This document shows, piece after piece, positions 4,933-64,000 of a stretch of DNA of 64,000 nt. The notes beneath the pieces were generated by a model. The model had not been told where the DNA came from. It saw only the letters and a program-made list of their open reading frames with translations, and did not search any database. The position numbers were made by a program, and so were the translations under genes. This DNA is from Gemmatimonadales bacterium (GTDB taxonomy: Bacteria; Gemmatimonadota; Gemmatimonadetes; Gemmatimonadales; GWC2-71-9), in NCBI GenBank assembly GCA_036002045.1, contig DASYTT010000095.1, positions 3,061-67,060 on the forward strand, read 5' to 3'. Position 1 is the stretch's first letter, and every line of letters begins with the position of its first letter.

Positions 4933-4956
4933 ATCGAAACGGATGCAGCGCCGCAG

Positions 4957-5427
4957 CTACTGCACGCGTACCAACTCGATCGTGAAAACCAGAATCGAAT
5001 TGGGGGGAATCGGACCGTTGGGCTGTGCGCCGTAGCCGAGCGCCGGCGGAATGATGAGCTGCCGCCGCCCCCCTGCACGCATTCCCGTGACACCTTCGTC
5101 AAATCCCGGTACGACCTCACCGGCCCCCAAGCGGAACACGAAGGGCGGGTCCATGGGCCCGTTGGCGTCGAATGGCTGGCCGTTCGCCAGGCTTCCCTGG
5201 TAGTGAATGGCGACCTGCTGTCCGGGGCCCGCCGGCGCGCCTGTGCCGGGGGAGAGCTCGCGCAGGTAGACGCCTCGTGGCGTCCTGGTCATCGCGCTCA
5301 GCTCGATCCCCAAGGAGGGTGAGAAGGTGGTACTCCCGATGTCCGGCACAGCCGTTTCTGCCGGCTTGCGGTCCACTGAACCGGTGCAAGCCGTCAACAG
5401 GAGAGCGCCCAGCAGAGCGGGTCTCAT
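4957..5427 (-). CDS. FKBP-type peptidyl-prolyl cis-trans isomerase, lipoprotein
   Basis: Lipobox LLLTAC. FKBP core GQPFDANG..PFVFRLGAGEVVPGFDEGVTGMRAGGRRQLIIPPALGYG..IPPNSILVFTIELV. Confidence 0.9.
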   Translation of the reverse strand: MRPALLGALLLTACTGSVDRKPAETAVPDIGSTTFSPSLGIELSAMTRTPRGVYLRELSPGTGAPAGPGQQVAIHYQGSLANGQPFDANGPMDPPFVFRLGAGEVVPGFDEGVTGMRAGGRRQLIIPPALGYGAQPNGPIPPNSILVFTIELVRVQ

Positions 5428-5433
5428 GCCTTT

Positions 5434-10360: not shown

Positions 10361-12304
10361 ATGACCGATCCAGCAGACCTCAGTGAGCGACCTCTCGCGC
10401 AGCGCCTGAAAGAGGCGCTGGGGGCGGAGTACACCATCGAAGGCGAGATCGGCCGCGGCGGGATGGGAGTGGTGTATCGCGCGCGTGACGAGCGGCTGCA
10501 CCGCAGGGTCGCGGTGAAGGTGCTCCCTCCCGAACTGGCCTTTCAGAGGGAAATTCGCGAGCGCTTTACCCGGGAGGCCCAGACCGCGGCTCGGCTGTCC
10601 CATCCCCACATCGTACCGATCCATGACGTCGGCGAGGGCGCCGGCGTGGTGTACTTCATCATGGGGCTGGTAGAAGGCGAGTCGCTCGGCGGGCGGCTCA
10701 AGCGTCGTGGCAAGCTGCCCGCGGACGAAGTCCGGCGGATCATGAAGGAGACCGCCGACGCCCTGTCCGCTGCCCATGCCGTCTCGATCATCCATCGGGA
10801 CATCAAACCGGACAACATCCTGCTCGAAGGTACCCGCGGCCGGGTCATGGTAACGGACTTCGGAATCGCGAAGGCGGTCTCGCAGATTTCCGGGTCAACC
10901 TTGACCGGCGTGGGCGTCGCGATCGGGACGCCGCAGTACATGAGCCCGGAGCAGGCGGCGGGAGAGCGCGATCTCGACGGCCGCTCCGATCTTTACTCGC
11001 TCGGCGTAGTTGCGTATCAGATGACCAGCGGAGAATTGCCGTTCAATGCGCCGACCGTCGCGGGGATTCTGATGAAGCAAATCACCGAGCCGGCGCCGGT
11101 GCTGCACGAGACGCAGGGTGGAGTCCCGGAAGATCTCTCGCTCGCCATCGCCCGCTGCCTGGAGAAGGATCCAGAGCAGCGCTGGCCCACCGCTGATTCG
11201 CTGCGCCGGTCCCTGGAGAGCCGGACCGTGACAGGGTATCGGCCCACGACGGCCGCTGTACGGGTCAGTCCTCGGCCCACGGGAACTCGCCCAAGGCCGA
11301 CCGGCAGAGCCGCAGAGGGGCTGAGGAGCCGAGGGGCAGAGGGGCCACGAAGGGGAGGGGAGCTGGCTCCCCGGAGCCCACGGCCGGCTGGACTGGCCGA
11401 AGGACAGCGGGGCCGAGGGGCTGTGGGAGTCGGAAGTCAGTGGCGCAAGAATGAGCGCGGAGAATGGGTCCGCACCGAGCCGGGTGAGCTACCGGTCCCA
11501 GACACGGGAGAGCCCGCAATCGTTCAGAAGGTGCGCGGGCAGTTTGCGCGCTGGGCGGCGACCAGCGTGGGACTCTTCCTGCTGAACATCGCCACCGGAC
11601 TGGATTCGCCCTGGTTCCTCTTTCCGGCGGGCGGCATGGCGATCCCGCTGCTCAAGAACTACTCGCGCCTCTGGCAGGCGGGCTATAGCTGGCGGGACGT
11701 GATGAATCCGCCGCCCGCCGCGGATGCGGTCCGGGTGCCGGGGGCCAAGGGCAGAAAGACTCTGGTCCCACCCCGACGAGAAGAGTTCGGCCCGTATTTC
11801 GACCGCATCGAGTCGGCGTATAAGGACCGCAAGATGATCGTCTCGCTGGTGCAGCAGCTGCCGGAGAGCGATCGCAAGATGCTGCCCACGGAGATCGTCG
11901 AAACCACCGACGAGCTCTACCAGCGGGCGCTCGAGCTGGCCCGGACGCTGTACGACATCGATACCAGCTTCGGCGACGAGACGCCGGAGCGGATCAAGCA
12001 TCGCCTGGAGCTCCTGACCTTGCAGGCCGACGGTCCGGAGCGTGAGCGACAGATCGGCATCCTGGAGCGACAGTACAAGACGGCGAGCGAGTTGATGGAC
12101 CGGCGTGCCAGGATTGCGGCTCGGCTCGAATCGAGCATCCTCGCGATGCAGAACATGCGGTTCGACATGCTGCGGCTCAAATCCGCCGGCGTGGGCGCGG
12201 TCTTGAGCGACCTGACTCAGGCCACCCAGCAGGCGCGGGCCATCTCCCGTGACGTCGACCACGCCATCGCCGCGGCGCGTGAAGTCCGCGAGGCGATTTC
12301 GTGA
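10361..12304 (+). CDS. Ser/Thr protein kinase with low-complexity linker, 2TM-type membrane segment and C-terminal coiled-coil domain
   Basis: Hanks motifs VAVKVL, HRDIKPDNILL, DFGIAK, GTPQYMSPE. Later a hydrophobic pair, LFLLNIATGLDSPWFLFPAGGMAIPLL (2TM-like), then a helical C-terminus. Confidence 0.9.
   Translation: MTDPADLSERPLAQRLKEALGAEYTIEGEIGRGGMGVVYRARDERLHRRVAVKVLPPELAFQREIRERFTREAQTAARLSHPHIVPIHDVGEGAGVVYFIMGLVEGESLGGRLKRRGKLPADEVRRIMKETADALSAAHAVSIIHRDIKPDNILLEGTRGRVMVTDFGIAKAVSQISGSTLTGVGVAIGTPQYMSPEQAAGERDLDGRSDLYSLGVVAYQMTSGELPFNAPTVAGILMKQITEPAPVLHETQGGVPEDLSLAIARCLEKDPEQRWPTADSLRRSLESRTVTGYRPTTAAVRVSPRPTGTRPRPTGRAAEGLRSRGAEGPRRGGELAPRSPRPAGLAEGQRGRGAVGVGSQWRKNERGEWVRTEPGELPVPDTGEPAIVQKVRGQFARWAATSVGLFLLNIATGLDSPWFLFPAGGMAIPLLKNYSRLWQAGYSWRDVMNPPPAADAVRVPGAKGRKTLVPPRREEFGPYFDRIESAYKDRKMIVSLVQQLPESDRKMLPTEIVETTDELYQRALELARTLYDIDTSFGDETPERIKHRLELLTLQADGPERERQIGILERQYKTASELMDRRARIAARLESSILAMQNMRFDMLRLKSAGVGAVLSDLTQATQQARAISRDVDHAIAAAREVREAIS
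11305..11344. repeat. tandem octamer array CNGAGSSG x5 inside the kinase linker
   Basis: Read directly: CAGAGCCG CAGAGGGG CTGAGGAG CCGAGGGG CAGAGGGG, with two more degenerate units to 11360. Period 8 within a CDS; encodes RAAEGLRSRGAEG. Confidence 0.7.
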
Positions 12305-47778: not shown

Positions 47779-48114
47779 ATGACACCCACCCCGAAACGGG
47801 AGCTGCTCCCCGGCACGCTGGACATGCTGATCCTCAAGACGCTGACCGCCCAGGCGATGCACGGCTACGGAATCGCTCAGCACCTGCAGCGGCTTTCCCA
47901 GGACGTGATCCGGGTCGAGGAAGGCTCGCTCTACCCCGCCCTCCAGCGGATGCGGCAGAAGGGCTGGATCAAGGCGGAATGGCGCCAGACGCCCAACAAC
48001 CAGCGGGCGCGCTACTACACAGTCACCCCGCGCGGACGGCGCCACTTGGGCACCCAGGAGGCTGGCTTTACCGAGCTCGTCGCCGCGATTGGCCGGGTCA
48101 TGAAACCAGTGTAA
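47779..48114 (+). CDS. PadR-family transcriptional regulator (acidobacterial TIGR03433 type)
   Basis: LLPGTLDMLILKTLTAQAMHGYGIAQHLQRLSQDVIRVEEGSLYPALQRMRQKGWIKAEW..RARYYTVTPRGRRHL. Confidence 0.9.
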   Translation: MTPTPKRELLPGTLDMLILKTLTAQAMHGYGIAQHLQRLSQDVIRVEEGSLYPALQRMRQKGWIKAEWRQTPNNQRARYYTVTPRGRRHLGTQEAGFTELVAAIGRVMKPV

Positions 48115-48125
48115 GGAGAGCTACC

Positions 48126-50816
48126 ATGCGCGAATGGCTCGCCCGGCTCCGCGACTGGCTTCGCAGGGACCAGCTCGACCGTGAGCTCACCGAGGAGCTG
48201 CGCTTTCACCGCGAGCGACTGGAGCGGGAAGCGCGTGATGCGGGTGCCGATCCGGAAGCAGCGCGCTACGCCGCGGGCCGACGCCTCGGCAGCGTCGTTC
48301 AGGCCCAGGAAGCCTCGCGTGACCGTTGGTCCTGGCCCTGGCTCGACCATTTCCAGAAGGATGTGCGCTACGCGTTGCGCGGGCTCCGGCGCTCGCCGGG
48401 GTTTACCGCTACCGTCGTGCTGACCCTGGGCCTCGGCATCGGCGCCAACGCGGCGATGTTCAGCGTCATCGACCGGCTGATGTTCCGGCCCTATCCCATG
48501 CTGCGGGATCCCGCGCGGGTCCACCGAGTTTACCTGCAGTGGAATGAGCGGGAGCGCACTCGCATCGTGCCCGCATACGAGTATGCGCGCTATCTCGATC
48601 TCGCGCGGGGCACCAGGTCGTTTTCCCAGTATGCCGGATTCGCCGAGGCTGTTCTGGCGGTGGGCAGCGGGGCTCTGGCGCGGGAGCGGCAAGTCGCTAC
48701 GGTCAGCGCCACGTTCTTCGACTTCTTCGACGTGCGCCCCGCACTGGGCCGCTTCTTCGGAGCCGCGGAAGATGTGACCCCGCTCGGAGCGCCGGTCGTG
48801 GTGTTAAGCCATGCGTTCTGGCAGGCGGAGTTCGGCGGTCGCGACGTCATTGGGCAGACTCTCTCGGTCCAGAATCTCGTCTGCACCATCATTGGGGTGG
48901 CGCCCCGCGGCTTCGTGGGAGTTCCCGGCAGCCAGCCTCCCGCGCTCTTCATGCCCATTACGACCTACGCCGGGAGCAGCCAAGGGCCCGACGACCGGGT
49001 CAATTACTACAAGACGTACCACTGGGGCTGGATGAGCATGATGGTGCGCCGGAAGCCGGGGGTGAACGTCGAGGCGGCGGGTCGCGATTTGAGCCAGGCC
49101 TACCTGCCCAGCTGGAACGCCGAACGCCTCGAGGATCCCCGCCTCCCACCCGCCGAGATTGCCAAGCCAATCGCGATGGCTGGAGCGCTCAAGGTCGCAG
49201 CCGGCCCGCGGCCCGGGCTCGAGGCGAGGACGCTGCTGTGGCTGACGGGGGTCGCCGTGATCGTCTTGCTGATCGCGTGTGCCAACGTGACCAATCTGAT
49301 GTTTGCGCGGGTGCTGCGCCGGCGCCGGGAGATTTCCGTCCGCCTGGCGCTCGGGGTAAGCCGAGCGCGGCTGGTTGCCCAGAGCCTCACCGAGAGCCTG
49401 CTGTTGGCAGGGCTCGGCTGTTGCGCCGGCATCCTGTTCGCCCAATGGGGCGGCGCGGCGCTTCGCCGGCTCTTTCTACCCGCGGACGGCACGCTGGAAG
49501 TGCTGGCCGACTGGCGCACCCTGGCCGTCGCCTCGGCCTGCGCGCTGTCAACCGGGCTGCTTACCGGGTTAGGACCGGCGTTGCTCGCAGTCCGGGGGGA
49601 CTTGGCCGGCGGCCTCAAGGCCGGCGCCCGCGAGGGAACCCAGCAACGTTCGCGCCTGCGAGCGGGGCTGCTGATTCTGCAGGGCGCTCTGTCCGTGATT
49701 CTCCTCGTCGGCGCGGGACTCTTCGTCAGGAGTCTGCAGCATGTCCGTGGCATGCGGCTGGGCTACGACGCCGAGCAAGTGCTACTGGTTCGCAGGAACC
49801 TGCGCGGCGCCGAGCTGGACGACAGCAGTCTCACCGCCATGCACCAGCGGCTGCTGACAACCGCGCAGACGGTCCCCGGGGTGGAGCATGCGGCCTTCGT
49901 GAGCAGCATTCCTTTCTGGAGCACGTCCTCGACGAGCCTCTTCGTGGCGGGGATCGACTCGGTGGGCCGGCTGGGGCGCTTCACCTTCCAGCTGGGCACG
50001 CCGGATTACTTCCCGACCATGGGCACCCGCATTCTCCGGGGCCGTTCCTTCGGCGCGGTGGACCGGCCCGGAACGCCACGGGTCGCGGTGGTGAGCGAGG
50101 GCATGGCGCGGGTTCTCTGGCCCGGCCGCGATGCCCTCGGCCAATGCATCCGAGTTAGCGCCGACACGATGCCCTGCACCACGGTGGTCGGCATCGCCGA
50201 GGATGCGGTGCAGAACAGCGTGACGGAGGAACAGCACCTTCGCTACTACCTGCCACTCGAGCAAGTGCAGCCAGCCGGGGGCCACTCGCTGCTGCTCAGG
50301 ATGCGCGGCAACCCCGCGGTTCAGGTCGAGCCGGTTCGCAAGGCGCTCCAGGCGGTGATGCCGGGAGAAACCTACGTCACGGTCCGGCCGCTCAGCGAGC
50401 TGGTGGCAGGCAATACCCGGTCGTGGCAGGTCGGCGCCACGATGTTCGTGGCCTTCGGCGGGCTGGCGCTCCTGGTAGCGGCGATCGGACTGTACGGCGT
50501 GGTCAGCTATAACGTGGCCCAGCGGATGCATGAGTTGGGCGTGCGGATCGCGCTGGGGGCACAAACCGCCGACGTGGTCCGCCTCGTGATCGGCCAGGGG
50601 ATACGCTTCGCGGTAGTCGGAGTCGTGCTGGGACTGGGCGTCGCCCTCCTGCTCGCGAAGCCGGTGGAGCCACTGCTCTTCCAACAGACGGCGCGGGATC
50701 CCGCGACGTACGGGCTGGTGGCCGGCTTGCTGTTGCTGGTTGCCCTGGTGGCGAGCGCGGTGCCGGCCCGGCGTGCCACCCGAGCGGATCCCAACACCGC
50801 GCTGCGCAGCGAGTAG
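48126..50816 (+). CDS. ADOP-family duplicated ABC-type permease (MacB/FtsX-like, TIGR03434 type)
   Basis: ATG 48126 gives MREWLARLRDWLRRDQLDRELTEELRFH, the typical ADOP N-terminus. Two MacB_PCD + FtsX-like 4-TM halves. C-terminal RATRADPNTALRSE. Confidence 0.9.
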   Translation: MREWLARLRDWLRRDQLDRELTEELRFHRERLEREARDAGADPEAARYAAGRRLGSVVQAQEASRDRWSWPWLDHFQKDVRYALRGLRRSPGFTATVVLTLGLGIGANAAMFSVIDRLMFRPYPMLRDPARVHRVYLQWNERERTRIVPAYEYARYLDLARGTRSFSQYAGFAEAVLAVGSGALARERQVATVSATFFDFFDVRPALGRFFGAAEDVTPLGAPVVVLSHAFWQAEFGGRDVIGQTLSVQNLVCTIIGVAPRGFVGVPGSQPPALFMPITTYAGSSQGPDDRVNYYKTYHWGWMSMMVRRKPGVNVEAAGRDLSQAYLPSWNAERLEDPRLPPAEIAKPIAMAGALKVAAGPRPGLEARTLLWLTGVAVIVLLIACANVTNLMFARVLRRRREISVRLALGVSRARLVAQSLTESLLLAGLGCCAGILFAQWGGAALRRLFLPADGTLEVLADWRTLAVASACALSTGLLTGLGPALLAVRGDLAGGLKAGAREGTQQRSRLRAGLLILQGALSVILLVGAGLFVRSLQHVRGMRLGYDAEQVLLVRRNLRGAELDDSSLTAMHQRLLTTAQTVPGVEHAAFVSSIPFWSTSSTSLFVAGIDSVGRLGRFTFQLGTPDYFPTMGTRILRGRSFGAVDRPGTPRVAVVSEGMARVLWPGRDALGQCIRVSADTMPCTTVVGIAEDAVQNSVTEEQHLRYYLPLEQVQPAGGHSLLLRMRGNPAVQVEPVRKALQAVMPGETYVTVRPLSELVAGNTRSWQVGATMFVAFGGLALLVAAIGLYGVVSYNVAQRMHELGVRIALGAQTADVVRLVIGQGIRFAVVGVVLGLGVALLLAKPVEPLLFQQTARDPATYGLVAGLLLLVALVASAVPARRATRADPNTALRSE

Positions 50817-50828
50817 CCTCCGGGCGGC

Positions 50829-53087
50829 TTACTCCTCCTTGCGAATCAGCCTCCCCAGCGCTTCCCGATCGGGGGCCAGCAATTCGGCAACTCGATTCTG
50901 GTCGACGTCGGCGACGATGATTTGGCCCACCTCCGTGGTGAAATCGCGGAAGATGCCGTGTGATTTCATCTTGGCGACCTGGTACTGGTTGTCCTCGGTC
51001 GGGGTGACGTAGTGCACCGAGTCGGCATGAAAGCGATGAACCAGGAAGAGATGAACCAGTGTCATCAGCCGCTTCTTGCGCAGGGCATCCGCGAACGTGT
51101 TCTGGTCCCGCACCGAGAGGATGCTGCGGCCCCGCCGGTCGTGAATCGGGGCAAACACGACGTTGGCGAGCGGAGCATCCCCTGTGTCATGGATGCTGAG
51201 CTCCAGCAGCTCCGAGCCGGCGCGGTGGGGCCGGAGCTGCACCCGCAGGTCACCTGGGAGCTTGTAATGGCTGGTCCAGATCGCGAGCCACTCCTCGAGC
51301 AGTTTCTTGGGCACTTCCGTCTGGACGAGGTGCTGGTGCTGGGTCGAGCCCTTGCCCATGGCCATCGTGGTGGCGGTGCGGCCCGACGTCGCGGCCAGCG
51401 CCGCATCTCCACGCGGGCCGCCGACCAGCGTCTGCGGCGTGCGATAGGGTGATTCCACCAGACGAAGCTTGCGTTGCACGCGGGCCAGCGCGAGCATGCC
51501 GTCCTGTTTCAGCGCGGTGGCGAGCTCTTCGGCGGCAAGCCCGTCGATCTGGTGGCCGCCGTAGGTGATGAAGTTGAAGACATAGCCCAGCTTCCCGAGC
51601 TCTTCGGGAAAACGCCGCATCTCGTCCTCCGTCATCCCGGTGGTATCCCAGCTGAACGAAGGGGAAAGGTTGTAGGCGAGCATCTTGTCGGGATATTCGC
51701 GGTGGATCGCCTCGGCGAACTGGCGGGCGTCGGCAAGGTCAGCCGTCTTGGTCTCCATCCAGAGCACGTCGGCGAAGGGCGCCGCCGCGAGCGATTTGGC
51801 AATGGCGTACGGGATGCCGCCGCGAACCTGGTAATAGCCTTCGGGGGTCTTGGCGAGCTCGCAGTCCCAGCGGGCATCGGCGCCGAGCTGGCGGGCCTTC
51901 TCCCGCGCGGCATAGAAGGAGGCGCGCCCGGCGAAGCGCTGCCATTCCTCGCTGCTGGTCTCGACGGGCTCGCCCTCGCTGGCGCGAAAAGCGAGCGCCG
52001 CTGCGACCGCCTCACCATAGGTCTGGAGACCTGCCTGCTCCTCCCAGGCCGCCACGAAGCTCGCCGCGACACCGTCAAAGCTGCGGTCGAGCGAGGGCTC
52101 TTTGCCATTCCGGTAAGCAGCAGCCGCATCCGCGACTTTGCGGAGGAGACCCTGGCGCTCGAGCCAGGCAGAGGCGGCGGCGTGCTCGCCGTCTGGAATG
52201 GCGTAGAGCAGGTGACCGTTGAGCTCGCGGACTCCGGCCTCGTAAAAGTGGCGGATCAGCGCCAGGTAGCACGCCTTGTAGGCCGGCACGGCGCGATTGG
52301 TCGCGCCCACGAGGAAGGGCTGATCACGCTCGTCGGCGCGGCCGTCGATGAGGTTCGCCGCTTCGGCGTCGGTGCGCGCGACGATGATGCCGGGAACACC
52401 CATGAGATCGAGCTGAAAGCGCGCCGCATTCAGGCGCTTGTTCTGCTCGTCCTGGGCGACCAGCACTTTGCCCCCCTGGTGACCACATTTCTTGGTGCCC
52501 GGGCGCTGGTCCTCGATATGGTAGCCCGGCACTCCGGCCTCCACGAAGCGTCTAATCAGATTGCGCACCTGCGGGTCGCCGCCGTGGCCGGTGTCCGCGT
52601 CGGCGATGATGAACGGGCGGAAGTCGTGCACCGGCGTCGCCGCGCGCTGGGCTTCGGTCATACGAAGACGCTGGTACTGCTGATTGCGGTCGGCGGTAAG
52701 CAGAGCGCGGACCAGTGTCGCGGCTTCGTCGGGGACCTGGCTCAGCGGGTAGCTCGCGAGGTCCGGCCCCGGGTCCTCGCTGGTGCCTCCCTTGGCTGAC
52801 GTCGCCCAGCCACCCAGGTAAATCCCCTCGATCCCCATCCGCTTCAGGGTCACCGCCTGCCCCGGCGAGTAGGGGCCGAACGTGGTGATGCTCTTCCGCT
52901 CCGCAAAGAGCTGGCGCAGCCGGTCGTAGAACGCTATCGCCGCCTCGCGCGCCACCGTATGGTCATCGGCGATCGTCCCTCGCTGCTCGACCACCTGGCG
53001 CGCGCTGTAGAGACGGACGATTCCAGCGAAGCGGGGACTCGCAAACCACGCTTCGAGTGCGGCGACTTCCTGCTCGAATGCGCTCAT
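50829..53087 (-). CDS. aceA: isocitrate lyase, long (ICL2-like) form, 752 aa
   Basis: ATG 53087 (MSAFEQEV..). Catalytic signature KKCGHQGGK. An inserted domain is typical of the ~750-aa ICL class. Confidence 0.9.
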
Positions 53088-53233
53088 GAGGTAACTCCTG
53101 GCTCGCATTACTATCGACCGGCTTCTCAAGCTAACGCGAAGCGATCCGCCGTGTGTGGCGCCCGCTACCTGCTCACGCGTCCCCTGACGAAACCGCCGCT
53201 GGCAGCGAACCCCGAAGTCACAGGAGAAGAGCG

Positions 53234-53593
53234 ATGCGATATGTCGATGGATTCGTGTTGCCGGTCCCGAAGAGAAAGCTGGAGGCCTACCGCCGCATGG
53301 CACAGCGATCCGGCAGGATCTGGAGGGAATACGGCGCACTCGAGTTCCGGGAGTGTGCCGGCGACGATCTCAACGTGCAAATGGGGGTATCGTTCCGGCG
53401 GCTGGCCCGGCTCAAGCGCGGTGAGACCGTGTTCTTCTCGTGGATTGTCTACAAGTCACGCCTGCATCGCGATCGCGTCAATGCCAAGGTGATGGCAGAT
53501 CCCCGCATCGCGAAGATGATGGCCCAGAAGGCGATGCCCTTCGACGTCAAGCGCATGGCCTACGGAGGTTTCAAAGTACTGGTCGACGCCTAG
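53234..53593 (+). CDS. DUF1428-family protein
   Basis: ATG 53234 follows [66 protein letters not shown] matches the family pattern. Confidence 0.75.
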
Positions 53594-53602
53594 GGGAGCG
53601 CC

Positions 53603-57483
<3,881 letters not shown>

Positions 57484-57496
<13 letters not shown>

Positions 57497-57588
57497 GACG
57501 AAGGTCCTCGGGAAGCAGAGCCGACGATTCAGAATCGAGTCGAACACTACGCCGGCAGCGAGCCAGGGTTTCCCAACCAACGGCCGGT
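57484..57588. repeat. direct repeat copy A (~105 bp): relic 3' end of ICMT-like gene + leader + first codons of BNR gene
   Basis: 57484-57512 matches 60797-60825 at 28 of 29 positions. 57532-57572 matches 60848-60888 at 35 of 41 positions. Same order and orientation. Confidence 0.85.
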
Positions 57589-57636
57589 GCGCTGCAGCCA
57601 ATAAAAGTAAACCTCCCGCTGGTGGAGTTGTCGGAG

Positions 57637-60351
57637 CTACTCGTTTCTGATGGCCTGAGTGGGATCGACCGCGGTGGACCGCCGCACCGGAACGATGCTG
57701 GCGACGACCCCTGCCAGCGCCAGCACCAGCGCGGCAGCACCGTAAACGACCGGGTCGTGCGGCGAGGTCTCGTAGAGCAGGTCCGCGATCCCGCGTGATG
57801 CGATGAACGCCGCGACGCCGCCCAGCACCAGTCCGGCGATGACGGCGCGTGATGATTGCACCGCGACGAGCCGCACCACGTCGGCCCGCCCTGCGCCAAG
57901 CGCCATGCGGATGCCGATCTCGTGGGTCCGCTGCGACACCCAGTAGGCCATGACACTGTACAGCCCCACCGCGGCGATGAGCAACGCGATCGCTCCGAAC
58001 AGAGTGAACATGGTGGCGCCGAGCCGCCAGGGCTGAAGCTGCGGGGCCACGAGCTCGCTATACGACTTCACCTGCACGAACGGCATCGTGGGGGCGAGGG
58101 CTTGGAGCTCTCGGCGGATCGTCATAATGACCGGGGCGGGATCGCCCGACACCCGCACCAGGATCGCGCCCGGCAGCGCAGCCTGGTTCCCGGGGTGGCT
58201 CGGAGGGGAGTAGACGATAGCCCGGTCATCGTTGATCAGCCGGAATTGCAGCACGTTCCGTACGACGCCGATGACTTCCGAGCAGGCGCTGTCTCCGCCG
58301 TACTTCACGCACTGGCCGATCGGGCTGGCATGGGGCCAGAACGCCTTCGCAATCGCGTCGTTCACGATCACGACCCGCGCCGGGCTGCGCTCCTCGGCCG
58401 GCGTGAAGTCCCGGCCCTGCACGAAGCTCGCGCCGACCGTCGCGAAGAAGCCTGGTGTCACCGCCGAGTTGTAGGGACCGCCGCCCGGAAGGTCCGGTGA
58501 TTTGACGCCCGGTACGGAGAAGCCGCGCGCGCTCGCGGTGGCCATCGGGATCGTCAGCCGGACGACGGCGACGCTGGTCACGGAGGGGATCGTGCGGATC
58601 CGCTCGACCCCGCGCCGGTAGATGTCCTCGATCTGCACGGTGTCGAATCCGAAGCGGGCCAGGGGCATGCTGACCCGCAACACGCGATCGCGGTCGATGC
58701 CCACTTCGCGCGAGACGACGTTGTGCAGGCTGCGCACGAACAAGCCGGTACCCACCAGCAGGGTCACCGAGAGAGCGGCCTGGAGCAGCATCAGAGTGAA
58801 GCGCCCCCGTCCCCGTCCACCTGCCACCTGACGCGACCCCGCCTTGAGTCCCTCCGAAACCGCGGTACGCGTTCCCTCGACCGCCGGGGCCAGCCCGGCC
58901 AGCAGCATGCACAGCACGGTGATACCGAGCGTGAAACCGAGCACCCGCAGGTCCAGCACGGACTCGTCCCACACCAAGCCGGCCAGCAGGAGATTCTGCA
59001 CCAGGCGCGTGGCTCCGTACGCCATGGCAAGCGCCGCCGCCGATCCGACCAGCGCCAGCAGAGCCGCCTCCGTGAGGAGCATGCGGGCCAGGCGGGCGCG
59101 GCTCACGCCGAGCGCGATCCGCACGGCGATCTCGCGGCGCCGCTCGAGCGTGCGCGCGATGAGCAGATTGGCGACGTTGGCGCAGGCAATGAGCAGCACG
59201 ATGCCAGAGACGCCCAGGAGCCAGAGCGACACCTCGCCTTCGCGGCTGATGCCGTTGGGAGTACGCGTTGCGATAAGACCTGACAGCACGACGGAGCTGG
59301 TGGAGTCGCGCCACGACTGCTGCCACTCGCGCACCAGCCCGCGGTAGGCGGCCGTCGCCTGCTGGGCTGCCAGCTCGGGCGCGACGCCCGGCCGGACCCG
59401 CCCGATGATCTGGGCCCACCAGTTGTTGGTCGTATTGTGCCAGCCGGCACCAAACGCTTCGTTGCCGTACGCGCTGATCGGCACCCAAATGTCGACCTGC
59501 TGGCGGTCGATGCCGGCAAAGCCGCGCGGCGCCACGCCTACCACGGTAAAGATCTTTCCCTGGATCATGAGGGTACGGCCGATGACTTCGTCATCACCGC
59601 CGAGCTGCTGCCGCCACAGTCCGTAGCTCACGATCGCGACCGGCTCGCCGTCCGGGACCCGGTCGTCCTGGTCAGTGAACCCGCGGCCGACCAGCGGCCG
59701 GACGCCGAGCAGACGGAAGTAGTTACCGGAGACCAGCTGCACCGCGACGTTCTGCGCCTCGGCGCCGCGTCCCAGGCTGTATCCGCTCGGGAAGCCGTAG
59801 GCGGCGAGCTCGGAGAAGCCCGGCGCGCCGGCGCGCAGAGCGGTCAGCACCGGATAGGTGGTGACCGGATTGATGTTCGGCTTCCCATGGTTCATATCGC
59901 GATAGTAGATCCGCTTGACCGCGTCCGGTCCGGCGACCTGTGCCGGGGGGCGCAGGAGCAGCTGGTCCACGACGCCGAACATGACGGCGTTGGCCGCGAT
60001 GCCGAGGCCGAGCGTGATCGTAATGACCAGCAACAGGGCAGGGCGTCGCGCGAGGCTGCGCGCGCCGTAGCGGATATCGTCGCTCAAGGACATGAGCCGC
60101 TCCGTGTGGTGCTCGTGACCGACGCGCCGGCGATCGACGCGCGCGAGCTCGCGCCGGCTCTGCTCGACGTCACCGTATTCCGCGCGGGCGCGCTCGCGGG
60201 CTTCGCGCTCGGACAGGCCGAGCCGGATCAGCTCCTCGGCGCGCGCATCGAGGTGAAAACGAATCTCTTCCGCGACCTCGCAATCGACGGCACTAGACGA
60301 CCACGAGACGCGCAACACCCGCCGAATGCCGGGGATCCGGATCTCGCGCAC
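57637..60351 (-). CDS. ADOP-family duplicated ABC-type permease (TIGR03434 type)
   Basis: GTG 60351 lies 2 nt after the padR stop and gives VREIRIPG...EEIRFHLD, parallel to the 48126 paralog. Two FtsX-like halves. C-terminal RRSTAVDPTQAIRNE. Confidence 0.9.
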   Translation of the reverse strand: MREIRIPGIRRVLRVSWSSSAVDCEVAEEIRFHLDARAEELIRLGLSEREARERARAEYGDVEQSRRELARVDRRRVGHEHHTERLMSLSDDIRYGARSLARRPALLLVITITLGLGIAANAVMFGVVDQLLLRPPAQVAGPDAVKRIYYRDMNHGKPNINPVTTYPVLTALRAGAPGFSELAAYGFPSGYSLGRGAEAQNVAVQLVSGNYFRLLGVRPLVGRGFTDQDDRVPDGEPVAIVSYGLWRQQLGGDDEVIGRTLMIQGKIFTVVGVAPRGFAGIDRQQVDIWVPISAYGNEAFGAGWHNTTNNWWAQIIGRVRPGVAPELAAQQATAAYRGLVREWQQSWRDSTSSVVLSGLIATRTPNGISREGEVSLWLLGVSGIVLLIACANVANLLIARTLERRREIAVRIALGVSRARLARMLLTEAALLALVGSAAALAMAYGATRLVQNLLLAGLVWDESVLDLRVLGFTLGITVLCMLLAGLAPAVEGTRTAVSEGLKAGSRQVAGGRGRGRFTLMLLQAALSVTLLVGTGLFVRSLHNVVSREVGIDRDRVLRVSMPLARFGFDTVQIEDIYRRGVERIRTIPSVTSVAVVRLTIPMATASARGFSVPGVKSPDLPGGGPYNSAVTPGFFATVGASFVQGRDFTPAEERSPARVVIVNDAIAKAFWPHASPIGQCVKYGGDSACSEVIGVVRNVLQFRLINDDRAIVYSPPSHPGNQAALPGAILVRVSGDPAPVIMTIRRELQALAPTMPFVQVKSYSELVAPQLQPWRLGATMFTLFGAIALLIAAVGLYSVMAYWVSQRTHEIGIRMALGAGRADVVRLVAVQSSRAVIAGLVLGGVAAFIASRGIADLLYETSPHDPVVYGAAALVLALAGVVASIVPVRRSTAVDPTQAIRNE

Positions 60352-60353
60352 GA

Positions 60354-60701
60354 TCAGGCTGGTTGGGAATCGGTGGAGCGGAGAATCTTGGACACTGCGG
60401 CGACGTAGCGGGTCCAGTGCTCCTCGCGCGCTTGCAGCTGCTTCCTGCCGACGCGGGTGAGCTGATAAAAGCGGGCGCGGCGGTTGTTCTCCGAGAGCCC
60501 CCACTCACTCTCGACCAGGCCGCGCTCCTCGAGCCGGTGGAGCGCGAGATAGAGCGCGCGGTCCTCCACTAGGATCGCTTCGTCGGAAGTTGCCCGGAGC
60601 CAGCGCGCGATGGCGAAGCCGTGCCGGGGTCCCCAGGCGAGCGTGCGCAACACCAGCAGGTCCAGCGTACCGACCATCAGGCCAAGGTCATCCGGCTTCA
60701 C
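60354..60701 (-). CDS. PadR-family transcriptional regulator (TIGR03433 type)
   Basis: GTLDLLVLRTLAWGPRHGFAIARWLRATSDEAILVEDRALYLALHRLEERGLVESEW..RARFYQLTRVGRKQL. GTG start. Confidence 0.9.
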   Translation of the reverse strand: MKPDDLGLMVGTLDLLVLRTLAWGPRHGFAIARWLRATSDEAILVEDRALYLALHRLEERGLVESEWGLSENNRRARFYQLTRVGRKQLQAREEHWTRYVAAVSKILRSTDSQPA

Positions 60702-60796
60702 GTCGGTCTCCCCGGAGAGTCTCTGGGGAGAAGGTTAGTGCGCGATCCAACGGACCGCAAGCTCCGCCGACCACTCGAGCCGCCGCCGCGCTGCCG

Positions 60797-60905
60797 GCGG
60801 ACGGCGCGTGACGAAGGTCCTCGGGGTGCGGAGACACGGCAATGCGTGAATTGAGCGGAACGCTACGCCGGCAGGGAGCCCGGGTTTCGGGACCCCAGCC
60901 AGCGG
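60797..60905. repeat. direct repeat copy B (~105 bp): authentic 3' end of ICMT-family gene + leader + degenerate BNR-gene start (ATG to ACG)
   Basis: See copy A. At the position aligned with the BNR ATG (57494-57496), copy B has ACG (60807-60809). Confidence 0.85.
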
Positions 60906-61339
60906 GGAACTTGCGCCTTGTAGCGCAGCCAGGCCTCACCGTGCTGGCGGGCCAGCCAGGGCTCCTCGAAGCCCACAACACGCAGATGAAAAACCAGCAG
61001 CATCCCCACAGCGTAGATCCAGAGGCCCCGCGTGCCGAAACCAACGGCCCAGCCAAGCAGGATGAGGAATACCGCCAGGTACATCGGATTGCGCGACCAG
61101 CGATAGGCCCCCACGATGACGAGATTGCGCGGAGGTGACCAGGGCGCCAGCGTGCCCTTCCCGGTGACGTAAAAATCGCGAACGCACCAGAGCAGCAAGC
61201 AGCTTCCCACGCCGAGGGGAAGCAGGGCAATCAGGCGAAAGGATGGCCAGCCCAGAGCAGGCCGAAACAGGAACAGCGGGACGAGAAAGGCGACGGTGCC
61301 CGGGAGAGCGAGGAAGGCAAGCAGGGCTCGCGCAAACAT
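60863..61339 (-). CDS. isoprenylcysteine carboxyl methyltransferase (ICMT)/phospholipid methyltransferase family membrane protein
   Basis: ATG 61339 (MFARALLAFLALPG..). Signature GAYRWSRNPMYLAVFLILLGWA and C-terminal EEPWLARQHGEAWLRY. Confidence 0.8.
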   Translation of the reverse strand: MFARALLAFLALPGTVAFLVPLFLFRPALGWPSFRLIALLPLGVGSCLLLWCVRDFYVTGKGTLAPWSPPRNLVIVGAYRWSRNPMYLAVFLILLGWAVGFGTRGLWIYAVGMLLVFHLRVVGFEEPWLARQHGEAWLRYKAQVPRWLGSRNPGSLPA

Positions 61340-61355: not shown

Positions 61356-63527
61356 TCAGCTTCCCGGATGGTACTCCCGCTCGGTGTGACCCTTGAGCTG
61401 CGTGCGATAGAAGTAAACCTCGCGAAGGTCGCCCTTGCTATAACGCAGCGCCTGATCATTGAAGTGGCGAGAGGCCGGATCACCGCTCTGCCCACCAGCC
61501 GTCACTGCGCGCGCCCGCACACTGTCGCCGAACTCCACCACGGCGACGAAGCTGTTACCGCTGGTGCCGTACCATTTCTTGGTACCGCGGTAGGCACGCG
61601 CGCCAAACGAGGCGAGCGAACCCCACCGCGCAGACGTGAAACCGACCGGAATGCTCGGCTCCGAGTCGTTGAACGGCTGGACGATAGCTCCGGTGAGGCG
61701 CTGGAATCGATTGATGGCACCCCAAGGAGTTTTCCAGCTTCCGAAATCGGCTTGGAGCTTGGCCGAAGCCGCGGCCAGCGCCTCGAGTCGCTCCTGCGCG
61801 GTGGCCCGGGTGAGCGCATAGTCGTGAGAGGACATCCGCGCCCTGGTGGCAGCCGCGGCCACTCGCTGCTGGAGGGTATCTGCCCAAAAAATGGCAAGCG
61901 AGGTTGGGACGGACTCTGCGGACCAGCGGAGATCCCAGCCACGCAGGAGCGCGATCGGCTCGGCCAGTTTCGCCTTGAGCGGATTTTCGGGAGCCGTCTC
62001 GGCGTACGCCTTGAGCAAGACGGGGAGCAACTCCTGAAATCCGGTGAGGTAACTGTCGTAGGCTGCCTCGATGAGCGAGCTCAAGGTGAAATCCTTCTTG
62101 TGCTCGAGCACCCGGATGGCATGGAGGCCCCGCGCGTTCTCTCCGCCGGATTCCATGTACTTCGGGTAGTCCGCCTGTTTCGGGCTGTTCGGACCAGCCG
62201 CCGAGTACGGCCAGTTATTGGTGTTGTAGAGCCACCCGGTGGCTGGGTTCAGCACGTTGGGGCTCTCATCAATAGAGTGAATCCCCTGCCACTCCGTGGC
62301 CGGATCGCTGCCGTCCACCGGCTTACTCCAGTCGAAGCGGGGATCCCGCTTGGGAATGAAGTTGGAGTGCAGGTACGCGATGTTGCCGTCCGCGTCGGCG
62401 AAGACCGTGTTGTTCGACGAGTTGGTGTGCAGTTCCATGGTCTCGCGAAAGGCCCGGTAGCTCGTCGCCTTCGTGCGGGAATAGGATTGCGTCAGCGCCT
62501 TCACCGGCTCTTCCATGAGGCGTACGCTGATCCATTTCCCGTCGGCCTCACGCACGATCGGCCCATGATGAGTCCGGTACACCGTGAATACCTGCTCGGC
62601 CATGCCGCTGGCGCTCTTATACGGCACGGTGAGCTTGCTCACGGTGAGTGGGCGCTCTGCTTTGCCGTAGCGGTAGTACCAGCCGGAATCCTTTCGCACG
62701 ACGGTCTCGAGGTACTCGTCGATGTTGTCCACCCCGCTCGACGTGTGCATCCATCCCGCCCGCTCGTTGAATCCCTGATAGACGAAGAACTGGCCCCAGG
62801 TCACGGCGCCGTAGGCGTTCAGGCCTTCCTCGCTGGTGACCTGGGCCTCAGCCCGGAAAAAGAAGGACGTGTGGGGGTTGATGAGCAGCAAGGCATGCCG
62901 CGCGCTGGTGTTCTGCGGCGCAATGGCGATGCCATTCGAGCCTGCCGGCTCCGTTTTCCAAGCGGTGTCGCTCGCCGGCGCCTCGTTCCCGGTGCGCTTG
63001 CCGTAGAAGGCCCTGAGCCGGGGTATGGAAATCGATTCGATGTCCCCGCCGATACTGCCTTCGCTGAAACTGAGCGCCATCCACGGCTCGAAGCGCTTGA
63101 TGACGCGGGGCGTGACGTTGGGATGCTTGTAGAGGTAGAAGTTCAACCCGTCGGCCCAGGCATCCATCAAGCGCTTCAACCAGGCTGGGCTGGTGGCATA
63201 CTTAGCCTTCAGGCTGTCGGGATCGATGAAGAGCTTCATGCGCAGATCGCGATAGATCGCGGATTCGCCCTCCGCCTCCGCCAGCCGACCCAGGGAGTTC
63301 AGGTAATTGGTCTCCACCCGATTGAAGTCGTCTTCGGCCTGTGCATAGATCAGGCCGAAGACGGCATCGGCATCGGTCTTGCCAGATATATGGGGAATTC
63401 CCCAGTCATCCCGGATGATGGTGATGTCCCTGGCCTGCCGCTCCCAGCGTGCAGCATCCTGATTGGCGGCTCTCACCTGGGTGCATGCAATGCCCGCGGC
63501 CGCGCAAAGAAGAACCAGTCCCTTCAT
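61356..63527 (-). CDS. penicillin-acylase (S45, Ntn-hydrolase) family protein, AHL-acylase-like, lipoprotein
   Basis: ATG 63527 gives MKGLVLLCAAAGIAC. Autoprocessing site context PAGSNGIAIAP (the Ser-Asn nucleophile that starts the beta subunit). Size is typical for the family. Confidence 0.9.
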   Translation of the reverse strand: MKGLVLLCAAAGIACTQVRAANQDAARWERQARDITIIRDDWGIPHISGKTDADAVFGLIYAQAEDDFNRVETNYLNSLGRLAEAEGESAIYRDLRMKLFIDPDSLKAKYATSPAWLKRLMDAWADGLNFYLYKHPNVTPRVIKRFEPWMALSFSEGSIGGDIESISIPRLRAFYGKRTGNEAPASDTAWKTEPAGSNGIAIAPQNTSARHALLLINPHTSFFFRAEAQVTSEEGLNAYGAVTWGQFFVYQGFNERAGWMHTSSGVDNIDEYLETVVRKDSGWYYRYGKAERPLTVSKLTVPYKSASGMAEQVFTVYRTHHGPIVREADGKWISVRLMEEPVKALTQSYSRTKATSYRAFRETMELHTNSSNNTVFADADGNIAYLHSNFIPKRDPRFDWSKPVDGSDPATEWQGIHSIDESPNVLNPATGWLYNTNNWPYSAAGPNSPKQADYPKYMESGGENARGLHAIRVLEHKKDFTLSSLIEAAYDSYLTGFQELLPVLLKAYAETAPENPLKAKLAEPIALLRGWDLRWSAESVPTSLAIFWADTLQQRVAAAATRARMSSHDYALTRATAQERLEALAAASAKLQADFGSWKTPWGAINRFQRLTGAIVQPFNDSEPSIPVGFTSARWGSLASFGARAYRGTKKWYGTSGNSFVAVVEFGDSVRARAVTAGGQSGDPASRHFNDQALRYSKGDLREVYFYRTQLKGHTEREYHPGS

Positions 63528-63573
63528 GACCGGCCTCTCAGAAGTGAGACAAAGAAACCGAAGGACACGCTGA

Positions 63574-64000
63574 TCAGCGGCCGCGGGCGATCGCCTGCAT
63601 GGTCCGACCCGTCGCCACCGAAGTCGTAGCCGTGGCCACGATGTCAACGCCGGGCCTGGCAAACTTATCTCGATGTTTGATGAGGAGCCACTGCGGTTTT
63701 GCGGGAGCGCCGCGCTTGATGCGCACCAGCACCCAGGAGCCGCGAAGGCGCTCGCCCTTGAGCTCGAATTTCAGATCGCCTTTGCGATACCCCTCACGCA
63801 ACGCCGCTTCGGGGTCGGCAACCGGCTCGGGATAGGTATAGGTCCCGCGATCCCACAGCATCACCGTCCCCCCGCCGTACTCCCCCGCCGGGATGGTCCC
63901 TTCGAACTGATTGTATTCGACGGGGTGATCCTCGACCTGCATGGCGAGCCGCTTCACTGCGGGATCGAGGCTGGGACCCTTCGGCACGGCCCAGCTCTTC
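63574..64000 (-). CDS. DNA ligase D 3'-phosphoesterase (LigD_N) domain protein, 5' end outside window
   Basis: ..[52 protein letters not shown].. is the LigD phosphoesterase signature. The frame is open to the window edge. Confidence 0.8.

Follow-up and report, generated by a model that had tools for sequence, protein, structure and literature searches.

Insertions made by transposons and those of integrase-driven islands are alike in that direct repeats of the target bracket the inserted DNA. Transposons leave target repeats of 2-14 bp, and integrases leave a defined core, usually of less than 100 bp. Neither kind of duplication arises without terminal inverted repeats or an integrase, and each copy of such an element carries one. 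Restriction-modification units show a different, published footprint, insertion with long target duplication (Nobusato et al. 2000, Gene 259:99; Furuta et al. 2010, NAR, PMC2853133). In the cases tabulated there, long direct repeats of 30-423 bp match a single-copy empty-site sequence in a related genome; as described, no further copy of the repeats exists in the genome, and they often lie across the start or stop codon of a neighbouring gene (PMC2853133). The driver proposed by these authors is the DNA-breaking activity of the cargo itself (Furuta et al. 2010, PMC2853133), and a restriction-modification cargo was a search criterion of the published surveys, as these are set out in the same source (PMC2853133).

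The locus reported here closely resembles this class. It lies in the window, the whole stretch of 64,000 nt that was analysed, from the genome labelled G000; all the genomes involved are metagenome assemblies. A small unit (below 20 kb) with no transposase or integrase is bracketed by direct repeats longer than 30 bp, both repeats align to a single-copy empty site in a relative, and the repeat is unique and spans start and stop codons. The differences concern cargo, length and age. The cargo is a PadR regulator with an ADOP permease and not a restriction-modification system, and therefore the driver that these authors propose, a cargo that breaks DNA, cannot apply here. The duplication is at least 633 bp, as against up to 423 bp in the cases tabulated by Furuta et al. 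Finally, the present example is old: its copies are 82% identical, and one of them has an internal deletion of 481 bp. The footprint of the PadR-ADOP insertion is rare but already described; here its cargo is a regulator-permease operon.

The initial annotation of this DNA had reported two repeat blocks with a 3-nt difference in spacing, and pairwise alignment confirms them. In block 1 (57484-57512 versus 60797-60825) 28 of 29 positions are identical, and in block 2 (57532-57572 versus 60848-60888) 35 of 41; the offset between the copies is 3313 nt and 3316 nt, respectively. Aligned locally with gaps, 57484-57572 and 60797-60888 give a score of 93, well above shuffled sequences (19.7 ± 2.6, maximum 32, n=500), that is, about 28 standard deviations over them. 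Extended to 57484-57586 and 60797-60908, the alignment matches in 84 of 102 ungapped columns (82%), with 11 further gap columns. A whole-genome search with the repeat returned two copies only (second copy E = 4.8e-16, next match E > 0.1), so it is not a dispersed repeat.

The content of the copies is also as first described (Table 1). Read on the minus strand, each holds an ICMT tail, a leader (..CCCGAGGACCTTCGTC) and a BNR start, and the leaders of copies A and B are 72% identical. Copy B closes the real PEMT/ICMT-family gene (..PRWLGSRNPGSLPA, then stop), and continues with a leader relic of 53 nt, which retains the Shine-Dalgarno motif GAGGA, and with a dead BNR start, ACG, at 60807-60809 plus 10 nt. 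In copy A the ICMT tail is a non-coding relic (GRWLGNPGSLPA, stop at 57547-57549), followed by a functional leader of 50 nt and by ATG CGC CGT CCG, the real BNR start (ATG at 57494-57496, plus 10 nt). By its Pfam match the ICMT gene can be assigned to the PEMT/ICMT superfamily; its score against the NCBIfam isoprenylcysteine methyltransferase model, 19.8 bits for a cut-off of 160, is sub-threshold.

Table 1. Features of the PadR-ADOP insertion locus in G000, in window positions
Feature	Position	Strand	Evidence
PenAm, penicillin-amidase family gene, upstream of ICMT	61356..63662	-	Pfam PF01804, E = 7.8e-124
Native PenAm 3' segment, about codons -25 to -12, duplicated as relic P'	61390..61429	-	27/36 versus 57588-57623
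ICMT, PEMT/ICMT-family membrane methyltransferase gene, 158 aa, intact	60863..61339	-	Pfam PF04191, 39.3 bits versus cut-off 25
Copy B: last 15 ICMT codons and TAG (60863-60865), BNR-leader relic, dead start	60797..60908	-	Alignment
Inserted cassette, about 3.17 kb	57624..60796	-	Ends of similarity to target; ends ± about 10 nt
Imperfect palindrome CCCCGGAGAG/TCTCTGGGG, 9 nt upstream of the PadR GTG	60710..60728		Sequence reading; conserved in the G010 cassette
PadR-family regulator, 115 aa	60354..60701	-	Pfam PF03551; NCBIfam TIGR03433, 128.2 bits versus cut-off 101.8
ADOP-family duplicated MacB-like permease, 904 aa	57637..60351	-	NCBIfam TIGR03434, 746.1 bits versus cut-off 622.3
P', non-coding PenAm 3'-end relic	57584..57623	-	Alignment; same junction in L146
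Copy A: ICMT-tail relic, BNR leader, real BNR start	57484..57583	-	Alignment
BNR/sortilin-Vps10 repeat protein gene, 1297 aa, signal peptide, intact	53603..57496	-	Pfam PF15902, E = 1.9e-31, and BNR repeats
Low-divergence tract, G000 versus L146: copy B, cassette and copy A	57483..60937		Maximum-likelihood fit

The size of the duplication had been put at about 105 bp, and this is contradicted by a third collinear block, in which 57588-57623 matches 61394-61429, within the 3' end of PenAm, at 27 of 36 positions. This block scores 18, whereas shuffled sequences score 9.1 ± 1.2 (maximum 15, n=2000) and 288 other pieces of the window reach a maximum of 13. In an independent assembly, L146, 30 of 35 nt of the corresponding block match that contig's own PenAm tail (score 25 versus 9.2 ± 1.3). 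The alignment extends as far as CACCGG/CAAGGG, giving a PenAm piece of 36-40 nt in copy A, which is joined to the ICMT-tail relic at CACCGG-CCG, the point where about 481 bp are deleted. The presence of a PenAm fragment within copy A demonstrates that at least 633 bp of target were duplicated, namely the PenAm tail (last 25 codons or so), the complete ICMT gene, the leader and the opening 13 nt of BNR, and that about 481 bp were later lost from copy A; the length and the junction positions are minimum estimates, the outer ends having perhaps been trimmed by later deletions. Four parts of the target (PenAm fragment, ICMT tail, leader and BNR start) are found in both copies in the same order and orientation. 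Each copy carries a relic of the gene on the far side of the cassette, and therefore only duplication of a once-contiguous segment fits. What survives as collinear repeat is about 105 nt plus the 36-40 nt, flanking an insert of 3.17 kb. No staggered cut of the transposase type comes near to producing a duplication of at least 633 bp.

The ancestral order proposed in the initial annotation, ICMT directly followed by BNR, is supported by an orthologous empty site. The metagenome contig L064, just 1.1 kb long, carries a PenAm tail, ICMT, a leader of 67 nt and a BNR start with no cassette, the kind of junction for which a comparison of relatives had been suggested. Amino acid identity is 88% for its PenAm and 90% for its ICMT. 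The L064 leader is 57-59% identical to copy A or B, compared with 72% between A and B, which indicates that L064 is no recent revertant and that A and B are sisters. The PenAm-ICMT region of L064 is closer to that of the filled contig L146 (94%) than to that of G000 (85%); hence the locus is a mosaic shaped by recombination, and the sequence of events given below is somewhat tentative. The filled site recurs in two other assemblies. L146, the one of the two that covers the deletion junction, shares it with G000 and has a better preserved copy A; its copy B decayed independently, a 19-nt deletion having taken out the relic BNR start. In G016, ADOP (91% amino acid identity) is followed by an ICMT-tail relic and then by BNR.

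Comparison of the two filled alleles from G000 and L146 reveals a tract of low divergence. The mismatch is 3.2% within the repeat-cassette-repeat tract and 14.05% outside it. A two-change-point maximum-likelihood fit (log-likelihood gain 167) places the tract ends at 60937 and 57483, with support intervals of 60971-60839 on the left and, more widely, 57608-57479 on the right. The cassettes are 97% identical in nucleotides, against 86% for PenAm, ICMT, BNR and 2.2 kb beyond the window, and identity at third codon positions is 94% within the tract and 69-75% in the flanks; the cassette is thus 4-5 times less diverged than its flanks. It follows that the filled allele moved between the lineages after their split. 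On these comparisons, which the earlier note had not made, the repeat-cassette-repeat unit is judged to have been exchanged laterally between related lineages. The block ends coincide with the best-conserved segments of the flanks, as expected for plain homologous recombination. In this respect the locus is similar to accessory islets that are swapped by recombination in their flanks: filled and empty alleles exist at one locus, a 3.2% tract stands in a 14% background, and the breakpoints fall where the flanks are best conserved. It differs from such islets in that the crossovers would find their homology in the junction that the insertion itself duplicated, in its outer parts, so that the whole repeat-cassette-repeat behaves as the transferred block.

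The earlier statement that no recognisable transposase is present at the cassette is borne out, and can be widened to integrases, inverted repeats and tRNA genes. Neither a transposase nor an integrase was found in the insert, which PadR and ADOP fill, or among the neighbours over about 10 kb (PenAm, ICMT, BNR, ICL and LigD_N at the locus in G000 and L146). Terminal inverted repeats were not found (score 9 versus 6.6 ± 1.2 in shuffles, reached by 58 of 1000 shuffles), and there is no tRNA gene at the locus. None of the features required by transposons and integrase islands was thus found at the PadR-ADOP cassette. An IS element or DNA transposon was rejected for want of inverted repeats and transposase, and also because no duplication accompanies the cassette at its other sites or the remaining ADOP pairs. 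An integrase island or CIME was judged very unlikely, there being no integrase within about 10 kb and no tRNA, and the duplication having once spanned a whole gene; an integrase acting in trans keeps a small probability. The suggestion that the regulator-permease module was inserted with target duplication stands as regards the insertion, given the empty site, and falls as regards its size.

The cassette has an accessory, patchy distribution: 2 of 25 genus relatives (G016 and G010) have an ortholog and the remaining 23 lack it, and orthologous cassettes occur in differing contexts in G010, L147, L148 and P0002; no flanking repeats were found at the orthologous cassette in three other contexts. 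It had been supposed that such duplications are a general footprint of the spread of PadR/ADOP modules, and a genome-wide search for further pairs flanked by them had been suggested. The supposition is not supported: within this genome, a junction duplication was found neither at the 12 further PadR-ADOP pairs nor at the lone ADOP genes, about 15 in number, and 8 other ADOP loci in relatives likewise gave none. The closest paralog in the genome is just 39% identical, indicating that there was no recent intragenomic copying.

Taken together, we consider an insertion with long target duplication, followed by lateral exchange, to be the probable history of the locus with good confidence, irrespective of the molecular route. 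The ancestral locus would have consisted, on the minus strand throughout, of PenAm, ICMT, a leader of about 50-70 nt and BNR. A PadR-ADOP operon of about 3.17 kb, with its own 5' region, both genes and a tail of about 13 nt, would in one lineage have been joined into the ICMT-BNR junction by a single illegitimate, recombinase-free event that left at least 633 bp of target on either side of the cassette. Since the target was duplicated, ICMT keeps its true 3' end in copy B, and BNR its true leader, ribosome-binding site and start in copy A; neither neighbour was damaged by the insertion. The redundant second ICMT would then have been removed by the deletion of about 481 bp, leaving the relics P' and T', and the spare BNR start would have turned into ACG in G000 and been deleted in the sister lineage. 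Afterwards copy B, cassette and copy A, together the filled allele, moved between lineages about 14% diverged in the flanks, most likely through ordinary homologous recombination. The crossovers would sit where conservation is high, in the ICMT tail and in the block of ribosome-binding site and start, that is, in the outer parts of the repeats. An unfilled allele persists in a related lineage.

Candidate routes for the first event are template switching during replication, capture at a break by Ku/LigD end joining, and Campbell-type integration of a circle. The last of these, a sub-variant of the main reading that we regard as possible on a tentative footing, supposes that a circle made of an approximately 633-bp fragment of the locus and the cassette was integrated by a single RecA crossover; such a circle could arise by Ku/LigD end joining of two linear fragments. 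The process would mirror the integration of a suicide plasmid and give the order target-cassette-target automatically, and 633 bp, far too long for a staggered cut, suits RecA-dependent integration. Ku is encoded twice in G000, and on the orthologous contig L146 a LigD_N gene adjoins PenAm. If the fragment came from a relative, the 18% divergence of A and B could in part predate integration. Nevertheless two rare steps are required, and the data do not separate circle integration from template switching. For the later spread the model fits less well, because both repeat copies travel with the cassette, which a single crossover would not achieve.

Explanations outside an insertion with long duplication fare worse. 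A mobile PadR-ADOP module that multiplies generally through a staggered cut duplicating about 105 bp, a reading in line with the initial annotation, is very unlikely: the repeat of about 105 nt is genuine and does bracket the module, but the duplication took in a PenAm fragment, inverted ends and a transposase are missing, neither the other pairs, lone genes and relatives surveyed nor the three other cassette sites have such repeats, and the distant nearest paralog speaks against recent copying. Site-specific integration, in which the repeats would be attL and attR of a CIME-like element moved in trans by an integrase and carrying the end of the targeted gene, has very little probability. Direct repeats that rebuild the 3' end of a gene are typical of integrase-driven islands, and the block does travel between lineages; however, neither integrase nor tRNA was found over the ranges given above, a stretch comprising a whole gene and part of another is no att core, the cassette occurs at other loci without such repeats, and the block ends fall where plain homologous recombination predicts. 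Similarly improbable is an ancestral cassette with repeats from an unrelated tandem duplication or gene conversion, the empty contig being a secondary deletion between them. Direct repeats would allow such a loop-out, and by PenAm-ICMT identity the empty L064 nests beside the filled L146, yet a revertant should carry an A/B hybrid leader and that of L064 is about equally distant from both copies. The far-side relics in each copy, moreover, need a once-contiguous ICMT-BNR junction, and both the absence of the cassette from most genus relatives and its low divergence relative to the flanks argue against ancestry. As every sequence comes from a metagenome assembly, an artefact, or else chance similarity, has also to be considered; it can practically be dismissed in view of the alignment score, of copies too different at about 82% identity to mislead an assembler, and of the same structure in two more assemblies, made independently from different samples.

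An insertion with long target duplication at this locus means that DNA-cutting cargo, to which the footprint has until now been tied through restriction-modification genes, is not needed for it. As the footprint occurs here with an ordinary regulator-transporter operon, it is probably a general, host-driven accident of repair or replication. The locus would also preserve a full history in one place, from the origin and the decay of what was redundant to the survival of the empty allele and the lateral spread across lineages diverged by about 14%. It provides one concrete route by which members of the ADOP family may reach new loci, one that is not the common route in this genome. A bolder view, which we think unlikely, is that PadR-ADOP operons are recombinase-free mobile units that enter gene junctions by long target duplication, with the duplicated end of one gene and start of the next serving as homology arms for pop-out, amplification and transfer of the whole repeat-cassette-repeat block into the empty orthologous junctions of diverged relatives. 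If true, this would amount to a "life cycle" like the one proposed, and never shown, for restriction-modification units, and would help to account for the strong expansion of ADOP genes in Gemmatimonadota and Acidobacteriota.

The cassette itself comprises a 5' non-coding region of 95 nt, PadR, ADOP and about 13 nt past the ADOP stop, and its homology to the orthologous cassettes of G010 and L148 spans 60746/60760 to 57637. PadR lies directly upstream of ADOP, its stop 2 nt before the ADOP start, and the Pfam domains MacB_PCD and FtsX are each present twice in ADOP. The palindrome ahead of PadR is a candidate PadR operator or RBS hairpin, judging by its sequence.

The PadR-ADOP operon between the PEMT/ICMT-family gene (ICMT) and the BNR/sortilin gene (BNR) is bracketed by two direct copies of the junction of these two genes, copy A on the BNR side and copy B on the ICMT side (see the table). 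Alignment of 57484-57572 with 60797-60888 gives a gapped local score of 93, against 19.7 +/- 2.6 for shuffled sequences. Both blocks reported in the initial annotation lie at its coordinates, with 28 of 29 positions identical between 57484-57512 and 60797-60825 and 35 of 41 between 57532-57572 and 60848-60888, and with a 3-nt difference in spacing. A whole-genome search found just these two copies in the 3.6-Mb assembly (second copy, E = 4.8e-16; all other matches, E of 0.1 or more), and the idea of a dispersed repeat was therefore dropped. The earlier minus-strand reading of the copies also proved correct. Copy B contains the true end of ICMT (..PRWLGSRNPGSLPA and stop), a leader ending in CCCGAGGACCTTCGTC and then ACG CGC CGT CCG; in copy A the ICMT end survives as a non-coding relic (GRWLGNPGSLPA and stop), after which come the same leader and the genuine BNR start codon, an ATG.

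Features of the locus and their identity between this genome (G000) and the metagenome contig L146
Feature	Position	Strand	Basis	Nucleotide identity	Third-codon-position identity
Second PadR-ADOP pair	47803-50813	+	36% amino acid identity to the first pair
Isocitrate lyase	50829-53339	-	Pfam
BNR/sortilin	53603-57496	-	Pfam PF15902	87.0%	75.5%
Copy A	57484-57583			94% (both copies)
Inserted cassette	57624-60796
ADOP	57637-60351	-	TIGR03434, 746 bits (cut-off 622)	96.9%	94%
PadR	60354-60701	-	TIGR03433, above cut-off	98.0%	94%
Imperfect palindrome	60710-60728		CCCCGGAGAG/TCTCTGGGG
Possible upstream ORF	60738-60809	-	24 codons, if copy B had an ATG
Copy B	60797-60908			94% (both copies)
PEMT/ICMT-family gene	60863-61339	-	Pfam PF04191	86.0%	70%
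Penicillin-amidase family gene (PenAm)	61356-63662	-	Pfam PF01804	85.9%	69%
2.2 kb beyond the window				85.8%

Comparison with relatives bears out two earlier proposals, that ICMT was ancestrally followed by BNR and that the PadR-ADOP pair was inserted into their junction. The ICMT protein, used as query against metagenome contigs, led to an empty site, L064 (Ga0184632_10132702, 1097 bp), which carries the tail of PenAm (88% amino acid identity), ICMT (90%), a 67-nt leader ending in CCGAGGAACTTCGTC, and the ATG and N-terminus of BNR; the cassette is absent from this contig. A filled site was reached via a 97%-identical ADOP protein on the 9.5-kb contig L146, where the order is LemA, SDR, LigD_N, PenAm, ICMT, copy B, PadR, ADOP, copy A and BNR. 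Another is present in the genus relative G016, whose contig ends inside ADOP (91% amino acid identity) and continues on the other side into the relic ICMT tail, the leader and BNR. The leader of L064 has just 57-59% identity to each of the two copies; identity is 72% between copies A and B and 84-92% among the orthologs of copy A. It follows that copies A and B are sisters and that L064 is not a recent revertant produced by recombination between them. At the genus level, the BNR orthologs in G022, G005 and G007 have other upstream neighbours, with a scaffold gap at this position in G022; these genomes do not bear on the junction.

The two copies have decayed independently in G000 and L146. Copy A has lost 6 nt in G000 that are still present in L146; a stretch of 19 nt that contains the relic BNR start, ACG in G000, is missing from copy B of L146. 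This start may have been lost because a spurious start was selected against, or simply by neutral decay. An ATG at this position would open an upstream ORF into the PadR promoter region.

The initial annotation put the target duplication at about 105 bp, a length that is too short. The ADOP stop codon is separated from copy A by 53 nt, and within them 57588-57623 matches 61394-61429, inside the 3′ end of PenAm, at 27 of 36 positions (score 18; 2000 shuffles, 9.1 +/- 1.2 with a maximum of 15; no other piece of the window above 13). The fragment is in better condition in the independent contig L146, where it is identical to the contig's own PenAm tail at 30 of 35 positions (score 25 versus 9.2 +/- 1.3). 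G000 and L146 also have in common the internal junction that joins the PenAm fragment to the ICMT tail, CACCGG|CC(C)GTTGG. The presence of this fragment in copy A implies a duplicated unit running at least from 61429 to 60797, or 633 bp; this unit comprised the terminal ~25 codons of PenAm, ICMT in full, the leader and 13 nt of BNR. The redundant body of ICMT, about 481 bp, was later deleted from copy A. Further BNR-derived sequence in the first 52 nt of the insert was not significant.

As the initial annotation had remarked, there is no recognisable transposase in the insert or beside it; nor did we find an integrase or tRNA in the insert or its neighbours, and terminal inverted repeats of the insert were not significant. 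A duplication of 633 bp excludes a staggered cut of the transposase type and is longer than any att core. Replication might have switched to the cassette as template and, once this was copied, returned to the target 633 bp behind; a linear fragment might have been captured at a break by end joining; or a circle made of a 633-bp fragment of the locus plus the cassette might have been integrated by the Campbell mechanism. Since the donor and the pristine junctions are lost, all three routes are retained. A search for the donor identified none, the nearest non-allelic orthologs (76-79% nucleotide identity) being too diverged for comparison of flanks. As to end joining, the G000 genome has two Ku genes (C132:26173-26694 and C70:28397-28933), and the LigD_N gene next to PenAm in L146 (2005-2661) encodes an end-joining ligase phosphoesterase and is orthologous to DNA just past the end of the window, at about 64000-66184 of the contig that contains the window. 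By any of the routes, the insertion survived because of the duplication, which left ICMT with its end and BNR with its leader, ribosome-binding site and start.

The later history of the filled allele probably involved lateral exchange. A two-change-point likelihood fit to the G000 and L146 alignment delimits a low-divergence tract from 60937 to 57483, with 3.2% mismatch inside and 14.05% outside (log-likelihood gain 167; support intervals 60971-60839 and 57608-57479). This indicates that the cassette moved between lineages together with copy B and, less firmly, with copy A, long after these lineages had split. The breakpoints coincide with the two best-conserved pieces of the junction. One is the ICMT tail, in which G000, L146 and L064 share an identical block of 30 nt; the other is the block of the ribosome-binding site and ATG. 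Such a pattern is expected if a filled and an unfilled allele exchanged DNA by plain homologous recombination; a single Campbell crossover would have carried only one repeat copy. In PenAm-ICMT the empty L064 is 94% identical to the filled L146 and 85% to G000. The locus is a recombinational mosaic with presence/absence polymorphism.

Insertion with long target duplication was described from Helicobacter, with restriction-modification units as the insert, and subsequently from many bacteria (Nobusato 2000; Furuta 2010, PMC2853133). In those cases the repeats measure 30-423 bp, occur nowhere else in the genome and often lie across a start or stop codon, mobility genes are absent, and a relative has an empty site (Nobusato 2000; Furuta 2010, PMC2853133). 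The present locus shares every one of these structural features, but the cargo is different. The cause proposed by the authors is DNA breakage by the cargo (Nobusato 2000; Furuta 2010, PMC2853133), whereas a PadR-ADOP operon cannot break DNA, and our case therefore argues for a host-driven accident. The locus is a well-documented addition to a known, rare class, to which it adds lateral spread of the filled allele.

The proposal that such duplications are a general footprint of ADOP/PadR spread fails on the genome-wide comparison. The earlier interpretation stands for the ancestral order and the insertion and falls for the 105-bp duplication and the general mechanism of spread. G000 has 13 PadR-ADOP pairs and ~15 lone ADOP genes, and a junction duplication is found at one of the 13 pairs and at none of the lone genes; no flank duplication was accepted at the other 27 ADOP loci, including the second pair in the window, which is convergent with the isocitrate lyase gene. 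In relatives, another eight ADOP loci also lack it. The long duplication belongs to this one event, not to the ADOP family. High flank scores at contigs C139 and C145 came from adjoining paralogous genes, and a marginal 39-point match in G005 was discarded as gap-rich and C-rich. High scores at C130 and C160 reflect arrays of the heptamer (GGGAAGA)n, a sequence found at 25 or more loci. These intergenic arrays of 5-10 units occur on at least 25 G000 contigs (for example C130:56385-56435 and 59598-59669; C160:8321-8385 and 10852-10883; C16:9949-10029) and are absent from the window; some flank ADOP genes on both sides, mimicking flanking repeats.

The nearest ADOP paralog in G000 is 39% identical, which excludes recent intragenomic copying. 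Among named homologs, those nearest to the ADOP protein belong to Gemmatimonadaceae MAGs, which makes Gemmatimonadota, and not Acidobacteriota, the probable phylum of the organism. Homology to the orthologous cassette (76-79% nucleotide identity) begins ~50 nt ahead of PadR and extends as far as the stop codon of ADOP. This cassette lies between priA and AHSA1 in the genus relative G010, between an M48 peptidase and an aldo-keto reductase gene in contig L147 (ADOP with PadR deleted), between an inverted PadR-ADOP and an S9 peptidase gene in contig L148, and next to an Exo_endo_phos gene in P0002; no flanking repeats were found in G010, L147 or L148, the three contexts with DNA. Of 25 relatives within the genus, just 2 have it. 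With its varied contexts and patchy presence, the cassette is an accessory unit that relocates.

The palindrome, placed 9 nt before the GTG of PadR and overlapping its likely ribosome-binding site, is conserved in the cassette of G010 and is a candidate for a PadR operator or a translational hairpin. A scan for sigma-70 promoters and terminators gave no signal exceeding chance. In L147 (3390-3454 joined to 3453-6166; ADOP 78% identical in nucleotides) the PadR coding region is precisely lost, and the PadR promoter and 5′ region are fused straight to the ADOP start, apparently a naturally deregulated version of the cassette. An empty site for the G010 cassette could not be defined, because each of the five relatives examined has different DNA downstream of priA; the G000 contig carrying priA ends within that gene. 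Among six genus members (L144, L149-L153), nucleotide homology ends exactly at the priA stop codon in 5 of 5 comparisons, and this variable spot holds two PadR-ADOP cassettes in G010.
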